Assembly: GCA_965248835.1 (NCBI GenBank)
Contig: CBDFLJ010000001.1
Span: forward strand, 128,001-192,000
Reading direction: 5' to 3'
Origin: Alphaproteobacteria bacterium
Lineage (GTDB): Bacteria > Pseudomonadota > Alphaproteobacteria > MPNO01
Length of the DNA stretch: 64,000 nucleotides
The notes under the pieces are model-generated. The model was not told where the DNA came from. It did no database searches and worked only from the letters and a program-made list of their open reading frames with translations. Below are positions 717-64,000 of this stretch, piece by piece (within the stretch, counting starts at the first letter, position 1; each line of letters opens with the position of its first letter). A program made the position numbers and the translations under genes.

Positions 717-1400
717 AGCGCCGGACACCCTGGCAAGCGTTCCGGGACGGCTTGCCAGCCACCGACAAGCCAAGAAAAATGAAACAGGAGGAGAAATGAA
801 AAGCCGATTAATCACCCCCCCACGCGCACGCGTGGAAACGGGGCGGTAGTGTCAGGTGATTACCCTCTCTGTGCATTCAGGCAGGCACTAATTAGCAATT
901 TCAAAAATCGGCAGTGCAAATCGAGCAAGTGCGGTTAGATCGCGATGCCTTTTAATTTGCGATAGAGATCGAGTGCAAATCGGTCTGTCATTCCCGAAAT
1001 GAAGTCGGTTACTCGCAACCAAGATTCGTACCGGCTAGTTACGCCTAAAAATCGATCGGGGATAAGACGAGCCAGCATTTGGGACGGACCTGATAATTTG
1101 TTAACATCCCATCCTGCATGTTCTATGTCGACGACAACGGGAAGGAATAACTCCAAAAGGCCAGAAAGTATTTCCGAACCAGCTATCTCTATCACTGTCT
1201 TTCGTTCTGAGTGGTAAATTTTTTCTCTCGCAATTGATTTCGCCTCTTCGATATTCTTCTTGTACTGAGTATCGGCAATTAGCTCCTTTGTGTATGTCCC
1301 ACCTAATAATGCCTTTTCATTGTCTCGAAATGCCTCAGATGCCGAGTCGACGAGTTCGCCAATTGCGACAGCACGGAGCTTAGCTATAATTTCCGGCTTA

Positions 1401-2342
1401 GAGCCCTTCCGGAAAGTTCTTGAATCGGAAGAATCGTTTGTGATTCTGTGCTGGGCATCCGGTTTACAGGAGGAAGCCCGATGTGGACTGCGGAACACCG
1501 CCGCGCGGCGGAGCGTCGCGGACTTCGCTATCCGAGTGATCTGACCGACGCCGAGTGGGCGCTGATCGCGCCAATGATCCCGCCTGCCAAGCGCGGCGGG
1601 CGCAAGCGCTCAGTCGACGTGCGCGAGGTTCTGAACGGCATCTTCACCGTGCTGTCCACGGGCTGCCAGTGGAATGCACTGCCCAAGGATCTGCCGCCGA
1701 AGTCGACGGTGTACGACTATTTCGATCTATGGGAGTGGGATGGCACGCTGGAGCGGATCCATCATGAACTCTACGTCGCGGTGCGCGATGAGGAAGGACG
1801 CGAAGCCAGCCCGTCGGCCGCGGTCATCGACAGCCAGAGCGCCAAGGCGGCGCAAAAAGGGGGGCGTCGATCGACGATCAAGGCTTCGATGCGGGCAAGA
1901 AGGTCACCGGTCGCAAGCGGCACATCATGGTCGACACGCTCGGCCTGATGCTGGGCATCGTGGTGCATTCCGGCGACGTTCAGGATCGCGACGGTGCCCA
2001 CGAGCTCTTGCGCCGCACCCGGCGACGGTTCCCATTCATCGAGGTGATCTACGCCGACGGCGGCTATCAGGGACCGAAGATGGCCGCGACTGTCGCCAAG
2101 ACCGGGGGGTGGCGGCTCGAGATCGTCAAGCGCAACGACGTGCCCCGCTTCGAGGTGCTGCCAAAGCGTTGGATTGTCGAACGCACCTTCGCCTGGATCA
2201 GCCGCAACAGGCGCCTCGCTCGCGACTTCGAACGTCACGTTCGATCCGTCGTCGCCTTCATCCGACTCGCCATGATCCGCATCATGCTGCGCAGACTCGC
2301 CGCAACCCACTCACCATAGATTCAAACTTTCCGGATCGGCTC
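1401..2342 (+). mobile_element. IS5-family element (IS1031-like), copy 1, 942 bp
   Basis: Terminal IRs GAGCCCTTCCGGAAAGTT / AACTTTCCGGATCGGCTC; TTA at 1398-1400 and 2343-2345; two-ORF transposase. Confidence 0.95.
1481..2319 (+). CDS. IS5-family transposase in two overlapping ORFs (1481-1948 and ~1860-2319), probably joined by a -1 frameshift
   Basis: YPSDLTDAEW, WNALPKDLPP, IDSQS; [26 protein letters not shown]; slippery A5G6 run at 1854-1864. Confidence 0.9.
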
Positions 2343-2345
2343 TTA

Positions 2346-3287
2346 GAGCCCTTCCGGAAAGTTCTTGAATCGGAAGAATCGTTTGTGATTCTGTGCTGGG
2401 CATCCGGTTTACAGGAGGAAGCCCGATGTGGACTGCGGAACACCGCCGCGCGGCGGAGCGTCGCGGACTTCGCTATCCGAGTGATCTGACCGACGCCGAG
2501 TGGGCGCTGATCGCGCCAATGATCCCGCCTGCCAAGCGCGGCGGGCGCAAGCGCTCAGTCGACGTGCGCGAGGTTCTGAACGGCATCTTCACCGTGCTGT
2601 CCACGGGCTGCCAGTGGAATGCACTGCCCAAGGATCTGCCGCCGAAGTCGACGGTGTACGACTATTTCGATCTATGGGAGTGGGATGGCACGCTGGAGCG
2701 GATCCATCATGAACTCTACGTCGCGGTGCGCGATGAGGAAGGACGCGAAGCCAGCCCGTCGGCCGCGGTCATCGACAGCCAGAGCGCCAAGGCGGCGCAA
2801 AAAGGGGGGCGTCGATCGACGATCAAGGCTTCGATGCGGGCAAGAAGGTCACCGGTCGCAAGCGGCACATCATGGTCGACACGCTCGGCCTGATGCTGGG
2901 CATCGTGGTGCATTCCGGCGACGTTCAGGATCGCGACGGTGCCCACGAGCTCTGCGCCGCACCCGGCGACGGTTCCCATTCATCGAGGTGATCTACGCCG
3001 ACGGCGGCTATCAGGGACCGAAGATGGCCGCGACTGTCGTCAAGACCGGGGGTTGGCGGCTCGAGATCGTCAAGCGCAACGACGTGCCCCGCTTCGATTC
3101 GGCTGCCAAAGCGTTGGATTGTCGAACGCACCTTCGCCTGGATCAGCCGCAACAGGCGCCTCGCTCGCGACTTCGAACGTCACGTTCGATCCGTCGTCGC
3201 CTTCATCCGACTCGCCATGATCCGCATCATGCTGCGCAGACTCGCCGCAACCCACTCACCATAGATTCAAACTTTCCGGATCGGCTC
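2346..3287 (+). mobile_element. IS5-family element, copy 2 (direct tandem repeat), 942 bp; second ORF disrupted by indels
   Basis: Near-identical to 1401-2342 at offset 945, followed by TTA at 3288-3290; 1-nt deletion at ~2952 and a compensating change at ~3097-3103. Confidence 0.93.
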
Positions 3288-4459
3288 TTAGACATATCAG
3301 ACGATGAATTTGTCTCTTTCGCAATAGGACACAACAAATTTTTTGCTTCTTCAAAAGTGAGATACCCAAGCGCAAAACCATCTTCTATGTCGATAATCGC
3401 GTAGCAAATGTCGTCCGCCGCCTCCACGAGAAACGCGAGCGGATGACGGCACCAGTAATGCAGTTGCCTGTTACGCTCTATTAGACCCACCCCGGAAGCA
3501 ACCTGTTCGAAATAGCCTCGTTCAGAGTCAAAGAAACCAATCTTCTTCCCGCCTACATACGAATCATTGGGGATCGGATGGATCACAGATGAGCGAGGGT
3601 ATTTCGCAAATGTACCAAGTACGGCGTAGGTCAATTGCAGACCACCAGACCAACGGCAATTTTCGAGCTGCGTCAGAATACGAAAGCCTTGAGCATTGCC
3701 TTCAAAATATTTTAAATCATTCTTTTCAACATCTTCCATATCGAGCCCAAATATCTCCGACGATCGCTCTGGAGAATTAAACCATCTGCGTATTGTATCT
3801 TCCCCACTATGGCCGAATGGAGGGTTGCCGATGTCGTGGGCGAGGCAGGCTGCTTGCACGATGTACCCGAACGTATCGGCGGTAACCTGGGGATCGTTCA
3901 GGCTATCCGCGATCTGCGAGCCAACCATCGTACCCAAAGACCTGCCAACCGATGCGACCTCGATACTGTGGGTGAGTCTCGTGTGAACGTGATCGTTGTC
4001 GGATAGAGGGTGTACCTGTGTCTTGTGAGCAAGCCGTCTAAACGCAGCGGAGAAGACTATGCGGTCGAGATCCTGTTGGAACGGGCTGCGCCCCGGCTGT
4101 GATCGGCATCTGGACGCATCTGGACGCTCTAGTCGTTGTTCCCCGAGTAAGGTTTTCCAATCCATCATTAGCTCCTCCCTACAGTCTGCCAGCATGTCTA
4201 TCTATATAAGTAGCCACCGCTGTCCAAGATAATCGTAAGTGTGCACAGGTTTGCATCGTCGCCGTCGAGTGATTGAATCCCAAGGCAACCGAAGATCGCC
4301 CGATCCGTGAGCTTCGTCCCCCGCTGAATCCAACAGGATGGACAAATCCGATAGATGAATGATCAAGGACGCGCGAGAGGAATGTGCACGCCTTGCGAAT
4401 GAGGCCGCGTAGAGAGCCGAGGGAATTGAGGACTTGCACACCGGCACGATCACGGGGCC

Positions 4460-57600: not shown

Positions 57601-57740
57601 TGCCGGACTATACCAAACCCGCCGGCATTGTTGAGCATCCTGCCGCCGCAACCAATCAAACTCCTGAAAACAAATGCGTCTTCGGGGGTTTCTTATGTCC
57701 TGTCCAAACCCCGTCCGTAAGACGCAAGCATTCCGTAAGC

Positions 57741-58784: not shown

Positions 58785-58973
58785 GGCACCCAATCGCGGC
58801 GGCAATGATGCGAGCTGTGATGGCAAGGCCGTGCAGGACGAAACACAGAAAAAGGACTGGAAGCCGCGGCGCAGGCGCGACCTTAAGCCGAAAATGTAGA
58901 GCTGGTAGAAAGACGAAGGCCGACTACCTCTTAAAGCTACACAATTGTGTATCCAACGGCTACACTCCGGCCG

Positions 58974-59171
58974 ATGAAGGACGTGGGGCTACGTATAAGG
59001 GTTCAGCGCGATCTGCGGGATCGTTTTGTCGCTGCATGCCGGGCGCAGGACAAACCTGCTGCTCAGGTGCTGCGCGAGTTCATGCACGCCTACATTGCTG
59101 AGCATGCGGAGCGGCCGGACAGCGAACCAGGACAGAGAGCGGGGTCCGCTGTCCGGAGGAAGCCCCGATGA
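58974..59171 (+). CDS. Small ribbon-helix-helix (CopG-like) protein
   Basis: MKDVGLRIRVQRDLRDRFVAACRAQDKPAAQVLREFM: beta-alpha-alpha pattern. Confidence 0.75.
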   Translation: MKDVGLRIRVQRDLRDRFVAACRAQDKPAAQVLREFMHAYIAEHAERPDSEPGQRAGSAVRRKPR

Positions 59172-59374
59172 CAAAGGCCAGCAAAAATCAGAATCCGGAG
59201 CAGATCGCAGACGACAATACCAACCTGGACGTATTCTGGCTCAAGGACAAAAGCCTGACCGACCTCGACAACCTGCCCGAGCCCGACGATATGGCCGAAG
59301 AGATCATCGAGAATCTGGAAGCCGGGCTGAATAGTTTCCGTGAGGTTTTGGCAGGGCTTGAGAAGGCCTCGTAA
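59168..59374 (+). pseudogene. 68-aa ORF consisting of a type I RM HsdM C-terminal segment
   Basis: NLDVFWLKDKSLTDLDNLPEPDDMAEEIIENLEAGLNSFREV; ATGA-coupled to the RHH gene. Confidence 0.7.
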
Positions 59375-60058
59375 CGATCTGACTTTGCGGGAACGGGGGT
59401 CTTGTGAACCTAAACGAATTAATCGCAGATACCAGGACGTCGCTGGACAAGACTATCAAGCAGCATATTGAGGCGGCGGGCTTCAGGCGCGATCAGAGAC
59501 AGCTTGCACGTTTTAAGTTCTGGACTGGAGCCGGCAATCAGCCACATCTGTGGGAGCATCAAAAGGCGGCTATCGCGACCGTCACCGCTTACCTCAACGG
59601 CGACAAGTCCATTCCGGAGCGGCCGGATCACACCGAGGCGGCGCTGCTAAAGCTTCCCACCGGCACCGGCAAGTCCGGCATCATCGCCGTCCTTGCCCGG
59701 TGCCTCCCGGCGATTCGCAAAGTCCTTATCCTTACCCCTCGTACAGCGTTGACCGAACAGCTCCTGCACGACATCAGATACCGTTTCTGGGGACATCTCG
59801 GCTACGAGATTCAGGACGGGGAGCTCTTCACTGCGGAGGCGGCCGCGTTCGGTGCAGCGCTTGAAAATGTCTATACCGAAACGTTTCTGCCGAGCCGCTG
59901 CCAGAGCATGTCCTTGCATCTGGAGACCTCTAACAACCGGGAGATTTGACGAAGATTTCGGTGTGCTGTCCGACTTTCGCTGAGATCGGCGGTGTTGACG
60001 TCCGCAATCCTCCGCCGTTTCGTTCTCGGCGGAGGGTTTTGGCGCTATTCGGGCGGAC

Positions 60059-61180
60059 TCATGCCATGGCGGCGCTGCGCTCATGGAAGATCAGACGCTG
60101 GAAATTATAAGCCAGGTTGGCGAGGCCGATCTTGGCCGCCGCCCGCTCGAGCCCGATGGTACGGACGAACAGGCCCATGCGATCCTTCTGCTGGGCGAAG
60201 ACGTGCTCGACATGCGCACGGACCGCTGACTTGCGGGCATTGGCCCGGGCGGTCGCCTTGGGCATGGCCCGGCCCGGCGGCTTCTTGCGGTGGATGTGGG
60301 AGACCCGACCCTTGCCGGCCAGCCACGCCTCGTTGGCCTTCGAGCGATAGGCGCTGTCGGCCCACACGCCGGCGGCCAGATTGTCGCCGGTGACGAGATG
60401 ACGCAACATCTTGCCGTCATGGCGGGCGGCATCGGTCACTGCCGAGCTGCGGATGAAGCCGTAGGCCCGGTCGATGACGATGTGGGCTGCGCGGGCTTAC
60501 GCCGCGCCACTGGCGCGACGGTCCTGCTCGCTGTAGCCGAACACCGGGATCGCGATGTCGGGCATGCGCCGTTGCGCCCCGGCGGGGTTCTTGCGCCGCC
60601 CGGTCTTCACCGTCCACCGCGCATCCGTGTCCTTCTGCGCCGCCTTGGCCGGCTGATCGGGCCAGATCTCGGATGCTCTCTTGCCTGCCTTGATCGCCGC
60701 CTTCTCGTCGTCGCTGTTGCGCTGCTTGGGCGCCGATACCAACGTCGCATCGACGATCTGCCCGCCCATCGCCAGATAGCCGCACCGGCGCAGTTCGCCA
60801 TCGAAGGCGGCAAACAGCTTATCCATCGCCCCGGCCCGGACCAGACGCTCGCGAAAGATCCATATGGTGTTGCGGTCCGGCGTCGGCGCTCCGAGATCGA
60901 AGCCCAGGAAGCGAAGCCAGCTCAAGCGGTCGCGGATCAGAAACTCCATCCGCTCGTCGCTCACCGTGTGCCGCGCGGCCAGGATCAGTACCTTGAACAT
61001 CGCCACCGCATCGTAGGCCGGGCGGCCGCCTTTCGATCCGTCCGAATAGCCCAGCGCCGCCTCAAGCGGCGCGCGGAAAATCTCGAAGTCGACGACCTGC
61101 GCCAGCACCTCCAACGGATCACCCGTCGCCGATAGCTTCCGAAGATGATCCGGTAAGCCGAACAGACCAGCCTGCCTCAT
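60059..61180 (-). pseudogene. IS5 transposase interrupted by an in-frame TAA within a short insert
   Basis: GGRPAYD, DRLSWLRFLG, GQIVDAT, QKDTDARW, PVFGY[insert]AHIVID, WADSAY, RAHVEHVFA; both halves in the same frame. Confidence 0.88.
60486..60532 (-). repeat. ~45-bp palindromic insert inside the transposase
   Basis: AGCGAGCAGGAC-CGTCGCGCCA-G-TGGCGCGGCG-TAAGCCCGCGCAGC lies where the FGY-K-x-H motif normally has one codon. Confidence 0.65.
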
Positions 61181-64000
61181 CAATACCCCCACTCGAATCG
61201 AACCACCGTAGAGAATCACAACCAGGCAAAATTCGCGAGGTAAATGGAGGCGTCCATCTTGACGACGTGGACCGTGCCATTCTGGTCGGCACGCATCAGG
61301 CGCTTGGCAACATCCGCAAGTCCGCTTGCGATCTGGATGAGCCTGATGAAGCTAGCCGTCGACTGCTCGATCAGATCAAGAACAGCTTTCATCTCGTTAT
61401 CGTTGATGAAGGACACTACGAACCGGCGGTATCGTGGTCACGCGGGGTCAGGGGCTTCAACCTGCCGACCCTGCTGCTGAGCGCCACGCCGTACCGCAAT
61501 GATTATAAGTCCTTCCGGGTGCGCGGCCGGTACGTCTTTAACTACCCTTACGCTGATGCCGTCCGCGATCGGATCATCCGCCCGGCCGAGATCGTGATTC
61601 CTAATATTGCTCCGGAAGGCGAGCGGCCGGCAGCGGTGAAACAGTTTGTGCGGATGCTCAGTGCGGAGTTGCCGCCACGGCTGGCGCAGACCGCGCGGTG
61701 GTTCAATGACGAAGACGCCATGCCCAAAGTGATGGTGCGCGCGGACGATCTCGATACTCTGGAACTTCTTCAGGCCGAGATCGACCGCGTCTTCGATACC
61801 CGGTCGGTGCTGGTACATGATCGCGCCAAAAAGACGGATCAGAATCCGAACAGATTCACGTCCGTATCGTCGGCCATCCGGGCGCGCGAAGATGCGCAAT
61901 TCTGGGTGCACCAGAGCAAACTGATGGAGGGCATCGATGATCCGTCCTTCGTCGCGGTGGCGATATTCGATCTGATGGGTAACGCCCGCCAGCTTGTGCA
62001 GCAGATCGGCCGCGCGACGCGCTATTCCAAAGGCGACAGGCGGCTGCGGCAAACCGGCTGGGTGTTCGGATCACCCGCCAATGCAAATCGTATTCAAACA
62101 TCCTGGAATCGCTACATCTCCTATGAAGAGTATGTGGCCCGCAACACCGCCTTCGTAGTGACCAATGAAGTCACCCTGCCGGATCGCCTTCTCGACTATA
62201 TGGCCGACTATCAGTACATCAGCGGCGAGTTCCGGGGACGATTCGAAGTTGAAGCGCCGCTTGCGGCACATGACATTCAGCTGCCGCGCTCCGCGGCTGT
62301 TCTGAGCCTGCGGGCACCGTTGGCCGACATTGCCGCGATAGCGGACACGGTTGAAGAGGCGATCATGGACAAGGATCGCTTCAAGATCACACCGATCGAG
62401 GGAATGCCCGAAAACGCAATCGGCTTTTCCTACTATGCGTGGCGCAATTCCTCTTACCCGGTGGATCGCTTTTTCTCGGAATGGAAGCTCGGCATCTTTA
62501 TCGCGGTGAAGCAGGGTCAGTTTGTCTTCATGCACGATACGGAAGGGCTGGTCGTCGATATGGACCGCCTCGGTTTGAAAAGGGCCGGCCGCTCCCTGAT
62601 GGAGAAGGCTTTCCCTGCGCAGGATGACGACACGACGACGAGGCTCTCGCGCATGTCGTTCTCATCGCTCGAGATGTCGCAGCAGACGATCCGCAGCATG
62701 GCGCTACGGACCCGTTCTTTCGAGGATGTCTTCACGGACCTGCTTGAACCCTCGCTTGTGCCTGCGACAGCCTTCGGCTTTGTGAACGGCATCGGCCGTT
62801 ATGTCGGATTTGCCCGCGCGCGCCTCCGCGAGGCGGTAGAGCGTTACGTCCCGACACAGGCGTATTTCGACTGGACAGCGCAGGTTGCGCGGGAGCTTGC
62901 CGACGCAGAGCGGAAAAGAAGCAACGTCTTTGGACGTTACGCGTCGGTGGTCGATGGTCTGTCGGAGGACGATGCCCAGCCCGTGTCCATTCTTCTCGAC
63001 CCGTCCCAGGATATGTTTCTCGATATGCGCGAGGACGAGGCTGTCGCGGCGGCCGCGATGGCCCAAGAGGATGTCGATTACGACGATCTTTGCGCAGATG
63101 TCGATCCGGAGACCGGTGGGTTTCTTGCCAGGATCAAAGCCGAGGATGTCCCGTGCACGATCGAGTACCAGGAGAAGACCGGTAAATACCGGCTTTACAG
63201 CGAGCGGCTCAACGAGCTGTTCCCGGTCAAGGAGGTCGATGGCCGGCGTCAGGGACAACCGCTCGTTCAGCGCCTGAATCAGGCCCAGGCGTTTCGGGTG
63301 CTGGTGCAGCGTAACGGCGTCGTCTATTCCGAAGGCAGCTTCTATGAGCCGCGCCTGCACTGGGTAACAGATAACGGCGCCCAGCCGGTGCTCGATTACA
63401 TCTTCGCGGCGGGCAGCCTGGTTGCTGTCGAGTCCGAAAAGGGCGAAGGCTATTTTGCGGCTGATCGCGCAGAGTGGCACAGGCGGTCGATATTCGGGCT
63501 GTTCGAAGCCGTCGCTGAAGGTCGGCTCGAAGCGCTGGGCATCGAAGCCGACGATCTCACAAACGCGATTTCCGGCTATCCAATATGGCTGTGCGACGAC
63601 GATTCCCAGGAAATCACCGATTTCATCGGCGCTGACGAGGAAGGTAAGCGGCTTGTGTTCGTTCACGCCAAGACGGGTGACATGGCTCCCGGCGGTCAGG
63701 GCTTCAACGTGCCAAGCCTTCAAGTGGTTGGCCGTCAGGCCCTTGCCAGTCTGGGATTTATCTCACGAGGAGATGCCTCGCCCAAATGGTCTGCAGAGCG
63801 CTGGGCCGATGACGTTCAGGCCAATGCCGTCAGGCTGGCAGGGCGCAACCGCATCTTTCGCAGTCCTCAAGGGTTGACCGCTGCCGCCCTGAATGAGCGG
63901 CTGTGCCAAGCCTGCCGTAACCCGTCCTTCGACAAAGAAATCTGGATTGTCGGCGCAAACATGACCCGGCGCGCGGCGTTGGCCGCAGGCCTCGCGGCGG

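Follow-up and report, generated by a model that had tools for sequence, protein, structure and literature searches.

Defence by a single polypeptide that joins a motor to a nuclease has been described for Hna of Sinorhizobium meliloti, which one report (PMC13381803) presents as an ATP-gated enzyme that joins a superfamily 2 (SF2) helicase to a PD-(D/E)xK nuclease and has phage SSB as its trigger. According to section 6 of the same report (PMC13381803), Hna is 845 aa long and has a DinG/XPD-like helicase with a reduced Arch domain and no RdgC-like module. The mechanisms of Hna and other one-protein helicase-nuclease defences are at present under study. Here we describe a gene at the end of a stretch of 64,000 nucleotides (the window, whose coordinates are used throughout) from an Alphaproteobacteria bacterium (assembly GCA_965248835.1, contig CBDFLJ010000001.1, positions 128,001 to 192,000). 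The gene is a copy, inactivated by an insertion sequence (IS), of a widespread helicase-RdgC-like-nuclease family that a defence database lists as a candidate, and it is probably a disabled one-gene immune protein. Judged by architecture, Hna is the nearest characterised analogue: both are single polypeptides with an N-terminal SF2 helicase and a C-terminal PD-(D/E)xK nuclease, both occur on accessory DNA, and their nucleases superpose weakly (Z 5.1). The differences are that Hna has 845 aa and a DinG/XPD-like helicase, whereas the present protein has 1120 aa, an XPB/UvrB-like core and an RdgC-like module. The family is a separate and widespread lineage, with that module and a variant active site, which has so far appeared only as a database candidate.

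The gene lies on the plus strand and is visible in the ORF (open reading frame) listing and the raw sequence as a 181-aa stub at 59404-59949 and a long open frame that runs from 61267 to the end of the window, both of which the initial annotation had pointed out. Between them is an element at 59922..61255 bracketed by a 4-bp direct repeat, ATCT, at 59918-59921 and 61256-61259. When the element and one ATCT are removed, the frame is kept, codon 173 is restored as CT+T (CTT, Leu) and a product of 1120 aa results. The 5' part of the gene (59404..59921) holds residues 1-172 plus two bases of codon 173, and the remainder of the helicase core (61260..62151) starts with the third base of that codon. 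Downstream genome sequence places the stop codon at 64102-64104, 104 bases beyond the window, and the two halves of the whole gene are 59404-59921 and 61260-64104. Their join is borne out by comparison with an intact 1120-aa homologue (P0001): the N-terminal part (172 aa) aligns without gaps to its residues 1-172 at 84% identity, the C-terminal part (947 aa) aligns without gaps to residues 174-1120 at 93% identity, and residue 173 of P0001 is Leu, as in the reconstructed protein. Colinear, gapless alignment of both halves was also obtained with three other homologues (P0002, P0004 and P0009). The in-frame join proposed in the initial annotation is therefore upheld, and the size of more than 1080 aa given there becomes 1120 aa once the downstream sequence is added. 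Since the gene ends at 64104 with 1120 aa, no partner sequence is needed for completeness; the suggestion that partner genes may lie beyond 64000 was not sustained, as no partner is conserved across the family loci.

Judging from its reading frames, the gene copy in this genome is a pseudogene, unable to make the full enzyme. Our reasoning for this is that the stub is without motifs II-VI and that any product begun within the second half would be without Walker A. The knock-out also appears to be recent, because the gene is free of frameshifts and stops apart from the element and because sister copies of the element are 99% identical. The element is 1334 bp long, with its transposase on the minus strand, where ORFs are found at 60497-61219 and 60059-60439, and the transposase matches DUF772 (E 6e-20) and DDE_Tnp_1 (E 8e-9) in Pfam. 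We assign it from these features to the IS5 family, on the grounds of the DUF772/DDE domains, a length of about 1.3 kb, a short target duplication and its multicopy state. Another five copies of full length, 99% identical, and some fragments occur in the same genome, and the element has evidently been mobile there recently. Counted over both contigs, the genome has at least six full-length copies of it (99-100% identity) along with several half copies. The copy in the helicase gene is 2 bp longer than the others, which measure 1332 bp and have ORFs of 238 and 133 aa, and it differs from them in ORF layout. The gene copy carried by this genome is dead, knocked out by an active resident IS.

The helicase motifs that the initial annotation had listed as intact (Q, I, II, III, V and VI) could all be located, and they agree with the family consensus. 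Motif Q lies at 59548-59562 and motif I, the Walker A sequence PTGTGKS with Lys90, at 59656-59676, both upstream of the insertion; motif II (DEGH, 61402-61416), motif III (SAT, 61480-61491), motif V (EGID, within 61909-61941) and motif VI (QQIGRATR, 61999-62022) follow it, all on the plus strand. In Pfam, searched with both halves at E ≤ 0.1, the only matches were to ResIII, DEAD and, weakly, Helicase_C; ResIII (PF04851) matched 59404..59921 at E 6.5e-9, and the matches of 61260..62151 were weak. A family profile run against solved structures found XPBII (7e-13), then UvrB, type I HsdR, Rad25, RadD and others, with the best 60 rows all confined to the helicase core (profile positions 38-405). 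The single sequence, run against solved structures, picked up nothing beyond XPB/Rad25, with an E value of about 0.4 (5 hits at E ≤ 1). Taken together, these similarities identify the N-terminal part as a predicted SF2 ATPase/translocase of the XPB/UvrB/ResIII-like type. Housekeeping helicases were considered and set aside, as the NCBIfam matches to RadD, PriA, DinG, UvrB and DpdE/F were weak, partial and far under the curated cut-offs. The PADLOC, NCBIfam and solved-structure searches returned no full-length match to a housekeeping helicase or to any named system.

What follows the motor had been described as some 450 aa of unrecognised sequence. The region is real, but its fold can be recognised by structure. 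We folded the 658 residues after the helicase core using a 103-sequence family alignment, and the model had a predicted local distance difference test score (pLDDT) of 92.2 and a predicted template modelling score (pTM) of 0.87. The best Foldseek match of this module in the PDB was RdgC (2owy_A; E 2e-3, prob 1.00, about 310 columns), with no match at E ≤ 1e-3. VIA-align of model residues about 44-260 gave Iml3 (Z 7.0), RdgC 2owl_B (Z 6.8, 198 residues aligned) and CENP-N (Z 6.5). Among viral models in BFVD, phage RdgC proteins came top (E 4.8e-5 and 2.8e-4), and 7 of the first 16 rows were labelled RdgC or recombination-associated protein. Pfam RdgC was unmatched at E ≤ 0.1 in either half of the gene, and a search of the ESM Atlas with residues 40-430 of the module gave no usable match. 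On these models, the middle region of about 385 aa (62257..63411, plus strand; full-length residues about 506-890) is RdgC-like in fold, as are RdgC itself and the phage RdgC-like proteins, from which it differs in lacking membership of the Pfam sequence family and in being an internal module between helicase and nuclease instead of a free ring-forming dimer. RdgC is a recombination-associated DNA-binding protein and an antagonist of RecA, and the region is presumed to bind or encircle DNA.

The C-terminal domain (residues 891-1120, 230 aa) occupies 63412..64000 of the plus strand and continues to the stop codon. Folded alone, it gave a model with pLDDT 95, pTM 0.92 and a secondary-structure order of H-E-E-E-H-E. 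Five of its residues are invariant among 103 aligned family members, namely E899 (in SEKG, 63433-63444), D953 (in CDDD, within 63589-63603), E957 and D960 (in EITDFI, 63610-63627) and Q999 (in GRQA, 63730-63741), and the H975-A-K977 triplet (in FVHAK, 63658-63672) is kept in 90% or more of them; this copy, on the plus strand, has every one of these residues. In the model, E899 is just ahead of the N-terminal helices of the domain, D953 and E957 are in the hairpin between strands 1 and 2, D960 is at the start of strand 2, H975-A-K977 is on strand 3 and Q999 is on the next helix. As modelled, these conserved residues fall at the active-site positions of a restriction-endonuclease fold, where they form a variant motif, E..D..HxK..Q, with His975 at the canonical acidic position of (D/E)xK. 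SxK variants in which an acidic residue is recruited from elsewhere are known in the PD-(D/E)xK superfamily, and nuclease activity is plausible on the strength of the model.

Structural comparison of the domain by VIA-align points the same way. The 19 best rows, all of which we take from their titles to be PD-(D/E)xK-type nucleases or nuclease domains, span Z 4.8-7.6, with none reaching 8: CdiA-CT EC869 (7.6), FokI (7.1), NucS and R.BspD6I (6.7 each), CdiA-CT of Yersinia (6.2), SfsA (6.1), Shedu SduA and Hachiman HamA (5.9 each), Upx (5.7), AF1548 and N.BspD6I (5.6 each), Can2 in two rows (5.2 and 4.9), EcoT38I (5.1), Hna (9yhn_A residues 675-789, 113 residues aligned; 5.1), Card1 (5.0), McrC and LlaBIII (4.9 each) and HamAB (4.8). 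The restriction-endonuclease-like core is thus shared with HamA, SduA, FokI and the CdiA-CT(EC869) DNase, but at the level of fold only (7-11% identity); the D..HxK arrangement with an extra invariant D and E sets the present domain apart from these four, and the other domains are unrelated. The nuclease assignment, which agrees with the restriction-endonuclease fold proposed in the initial annotation, is supported by the consistency of this list below Z 8 together with the motif pattern, no single match being decisive.

A search with hmmscan against PADLOC-DB 2.0.0 gave, as the one match of substance, PDC-S71 for the C-terminal part (PDLC05077; E 5e-15, profile positions 128-544 of 589), and the same profile was the best PADLOC match in 18 of 18 family members, at about 1e-15 to 8e-52 and always in the C-terminal half. 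In distant family members the match covers nearly the whole profile. PDC-S71 is a computational phage-defence candidate and, as far as profile similarity can tell, the gene belongs to a family related to it; the 589-position model covers the C-terminal module (RdgC-like region and nuclease) and not the helicase, and the clade of this gene scores low on it. We found no paper naming PDC-S71 in a literature search, nor, among listings and abstracts on Hna, on RdgC in an anti-phage setting and on PDC candidates, anything about this family. The statement in the initial annotation that no named system could be assigned stands, then, for characterised systems, of which the gene is not a member, and falls for candidates, given that the C-terminal half matches one. 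Identity with Hna, which was first considered for the rhizobial relatives, was rejected on size, helicase type and lack of a sequence match: no Hna chain was among the 5 PDB hits at E ≤ 1 or in the best 60 rows of the profile search, and neither this gene nor the 18 family members had a PADLOC Hna hit (the presence of an Hna model in that library was not checked).

The family is large and scattered. In a protein collection clustered at 90% there were 448 matches, mostly of 1089-1150 aa and labelled only 'DEAD/DEAH box helicase', and representative clusters numbered 881 with E ≤ 1e-3 as the limit and 324 with E ≤ 1e-30, the alignments spanning the full length. Members occur in Alpha-, Beta- and Gammaproteobacteria and, at 23-27% identity, on Bacillus and Mycobacterium plasmids and in a prophage. 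The gene was absent from 40 relatives (0/40) and from 400 genomes sampled across the class (0/400); 16 of 72,556 plasmid records and 1 of 50,697 phage records, a Mycobacterium prophage, carried a family member, and a pattern search of viral contigs found no match. In this genome, the third-position GC content (GC3) of the gene is about 0.71, as against about 0.88 in the adjacent core genes (COQ7, DsbB and a deacetylase) that end near 57650. Its sporadic occurrence and its low GC3 mark the gene, as far as composition and distribution are a guide, as accessory and horizontally moved. Several close homologues on long contigs (P0059, P0097, P0040 and P0069) are called as truncated proteins of 680-998 aa; disruption of the gene may be common, or the gene calls may merely differ. 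No clear case of a C-terminal module free of the helicase was found among the shorter proteins (471-785 aa), which are mostly from short contigs or truncated in appearance.

The neighbourhoods of family members were examined in two sets. Seven of the 17 plasmid and phage matches were opened as annotated records, and in three of these seven defence genes adjoin the family member: a Rhizobium leguminosarum plasmid has SIR2 immediately upstream on the same strand, plus a RES-Xre pair, another record has AbiV immediately downstream, and another has a TOPRIM/OLD-like and UvrD pair (Gabija-like) along with HNH genes. A Tn7-like element and an AAA ATPase are found in one record and three tyrosine integrases in the prophage record. 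A metagenome scan gave 31 loci, in 18 of which ORFs were called, the other 13 being too short; 15 loci were scored after L011 (identical to L010) and L012 and L014 (upstream region the same as in L013) had been dropped. We scored against PADLOC the 112 neighbouring ORFs that lay no more than 7 kb away and were 90 aa or longer; the control, treated in the same way, consisted of 137 ORFs near 11 randomly chosen sites in this genome. At E ≤ 1e-20, matches were found for 21 of 112 ORFs as compared to 7 of 137 in the control, and when at least 70% of the profile also had to be covered the counts were 16 of 112 ORFs and 11 of 15 loci versus 1 of 137 and 1 of 11 (Fisher p 1.6e-5 for ORFs and 1.7e-3 for loci). 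The strong neighbours were ZacA, HmaA, a type IIG restriction-modification protein, a CBASS effector with capP/capH, AbiEi/AbiEii, a DRT-associated SbcB, two methyltransferases, a reverse transcriptase and four PDC candidates; the control set reached E ≤ 1e-20 with ABC ATPases that matched mad3 or AriA in part, with a RecD-like helicase and with a dGTPase-like gene. These counts, which bear on the neighbourhood check called for in the initial annotation, support the view that proximity to defence genes is commoner for homologues than for random loci. Pfam searches of the PADLOC-negative neighbours found a serine recombinase, an integrase, an IS110 transposase and ParB/H-NS/SSB, and also patatin, RES and SNase domains. 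The family is found, in sum, on plasmids, on integrative elements and in defence islands. No neighbour recurs across the 15 metagenome loci and the opened records, and both flanking genes are on the opposite strand in L010, L013 and L019; because of these two observations, the gene fits a stand-alone arrangement.

We favor the view that the family provides stand-alone defence through ATP-dependent DNA cleavage, and consider this rather probable. A single-gene helicase-nuclease defence is plausible on the architecture and on the mobile, defence-rich context, and to that extent the candidate single-gene anti-phage system of the initial annotation is supported; the defence function itself we infer. 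In such a scheme, the SF2 motor would load on and move along, or remodel, foreign or replicating DNA, translocating as its XPB, UvrB and HsdR-type relatives do, the RdgC-like module would hold the DNA and the nuclease would cut it, with the outcome that phage or plasmid DNA is destroyed or the infection aborted. The protein would act alone, as a single-gene defence carried on mobile elements. As to the trigger, one guess is a structure in the DNA (replication or recombination intermediates) and another, after the example of Hna, is a phage protein. A trigger other than methylation is considered because no methyltransferase partner is conserved. A more specific form of the idea, which we put forward tentatively and regard as rather doubtful, is that an RdgC-like clamp couples an XPB-like translocase to an HxK-variant nuclease and senses phage recombination or replication intermediates or their coating proteins, not methylation, so that cutting is gated by ATP and the family would be a new single-gene immune system. 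If the family does defend, it would offer a new form of motor-nuclease coupling and possibly a link between immunity and recombination intermediates.

Several observations weigh against defence by DNA cleavage. With regard to the nuclease, (i) a His replaces the canonical acid of (D/E)xK, and going by the motif catalysis is not assured; (ii) Foldseek found no match in the PDB at E ≤ 1e-3 for the nuclease domain alone and (iii) the best nuclease-fold match, at Z 7.6, is like all the others below Z 8. The PDC-S71 match of this copy is modest (E 5e-15), and our literature search found no experimental test of any family member. As for the neighbourhoods, the 70% coverage filter was picked after both outputs had been seen, the unfiltered contrast between loci is weak (12 of 15 versus 7 of 11), the control comes from a single genome and two of the scored loci (L024 and L025) are close relatives. 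Moreover, a reverse transcriptase with RNase H, lone methyltransferases and an SbcB-like exonuclease were counted even though they need not be defence genes, and on the Sulfitobacter and Bradyrhizobium plasmids the neighbours are partition, relaxase and leading-region genes, not defence genes.

These last two plasmids lend themselves to a different explanation, which is that the protein is a helicase-nuclease for the maintenance, transfer or repair of mobile elements, acting on entering plasmid DNA or recombination intermediates, and has no part in immunity. On the Sulfitobacter plasmid and in the near-identical loci L010 and L011, the gene sits between RepABC/ParB and genes for H-NS, SSB, DUF932 and RadC, and on the Bradyrhizobium plasmid it comes after MobC and a relaxase; the recombination-associated, DNA-binding nature of RdgC and the existence of phage-encoded RdgC look-alikes would suit such a role as well. 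We nevertheless think it unlikely, given that most other loci have defence genes close by and no plasmid backbone genes, and that the gene is also found in chromosomal islands next to a serine recombinase, tyrosine integrases or a Tn7-like element. These are cargo positions typical of defence genes, whereas a maintenance gene would be expected in a fixed backbone context.

The two remaining alternatives concern partners. The protein might be one component of a multi-gene system with variable or distant partners and be inert alone, and a few loci hint at this: L024 and L025 have a 103-aa ORF that shares 4 bases with the start of the gene, a 640-aa ORF ends 12 bases upstream in L028 and SIR2 is the upstream same-strand neighbour on the Rhizobium leguminosarum plasmid. 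Such candidate partners vary by locus and most loci lack them, neither flanking gene is even on the same strand in L010, L013 and L019, and the 'S' in PDC-S71, which we read as denoting a single-gene candidate in PADLOC naming, also speaks for a gene that works alone. We consider this alternative quite improbable. Less probable still, to the point of being very unlikely, is an orphan or degenerate type III-like Res subunit that needs a methyltransferase partner, here lost. It is suggested by the Pfam ResIII match and by the order of domains, which is that of Res (a ResIII-type helicase, then a C-terminal restriction-fold nuclease), and further by a homologue (P0065) labelled 'Type III restriction enzyme, res subunit' in one source, by the methyltransferase relic just upstream of the gene in the window and by methyltransferases within 7 kb in L019 and L025. 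That relic, however, is the tail of a type I HsdM and not a type III Mod, none of the 15 metagenome loci or 7 annotated records has a methyltransferase directly beside the gene, and no type III model in PADLOC or NCBIfam was matched. Membership of the type III Res group was rejected on these grounds. The region of about 385 aa between motor and nuclease is a further difference, as we know of no Res subunit with an RdgC-like module.

In this genome, the immediate flanks of the gene hold only the HsdM tail and IS elements. The tail, whose presence had been reported in the initial annotation, is a 68-aa ORF at 59168..59374 on the plus strand that matches PADLOC MTase_I (PDLC03026) over profile positions 421-479 of 487 (E 5.1e-13); it represents roughly the final 60 residues, stops 30 bases short of the helicase start and has lost the body of the methyltransferase. 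Its start overlaps (ATGA) the stop of a 74-aa ribbon-helix-helix ORF (58947..59171, plus strand; RHH_9 E 4e-4 and RHH_10 E 2e-3, both below the curated cut-offs). The AbiE reported nearby was not found among the 32 window and downstream ORFs that we scanned, and scans of the region for promoters and terminators, Rfam families and tRNAs were uninformative.

A second defence-type gene in the window is also split. A dGTPase-like HD phosphohydrolase at 935-4195 (minus strand) is interrupted by an insertion at about 1448-2893 of IS4/5-type sequence, with two identical-scoring DUF4096 ORFs and a DDE_Tnp_1 ORF, and its two pieces match positions 27-237 (at 3227-4195, E 1e-60) and 255-371 (at 935-1498, E 2e-9) of the PADLOC dGTPase profile. 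That the helicase-nuclease gene and the dGTPase-like gene are both split by IS elements in one window suggests that insertion sequences are eroding the immune repertoire of this strain.

Downstream of the window's end, in the same coordinates, an IS3-type element (HTH_Tnp_1 and rve ORFs, minus strand) and then an S24 peptidase/LexA-like repressor gene occupy 65623-68017, and we take them as more signs of a mobile island. Beyond these, within the same low-GC3 island, is a same-strand cluster of four ORFs (636, 359, 507 and 1833 aa) at 68738-78885. The first three have no Pfam match, the first being weakly SspF-like (E 4e-5), and an AAA+ ATPase with a RuvB_C winged helix forms the end of the 1833-aa protein; the cluster could be another uncharacterised system. 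In two of the metagenome loci, very large unannotated ORFs adjoin the family member. In L009 (5163-9392), a 1409-aa ORF with no Pfam or PADLOC match stands beside the family member, and in L028 (12529-21838) a 1624-aa ORF with matches to the RNA-polymerase alpha-CTD and sigma-70 region 4 is followed by a DruE-like helicase (E 6e-172).

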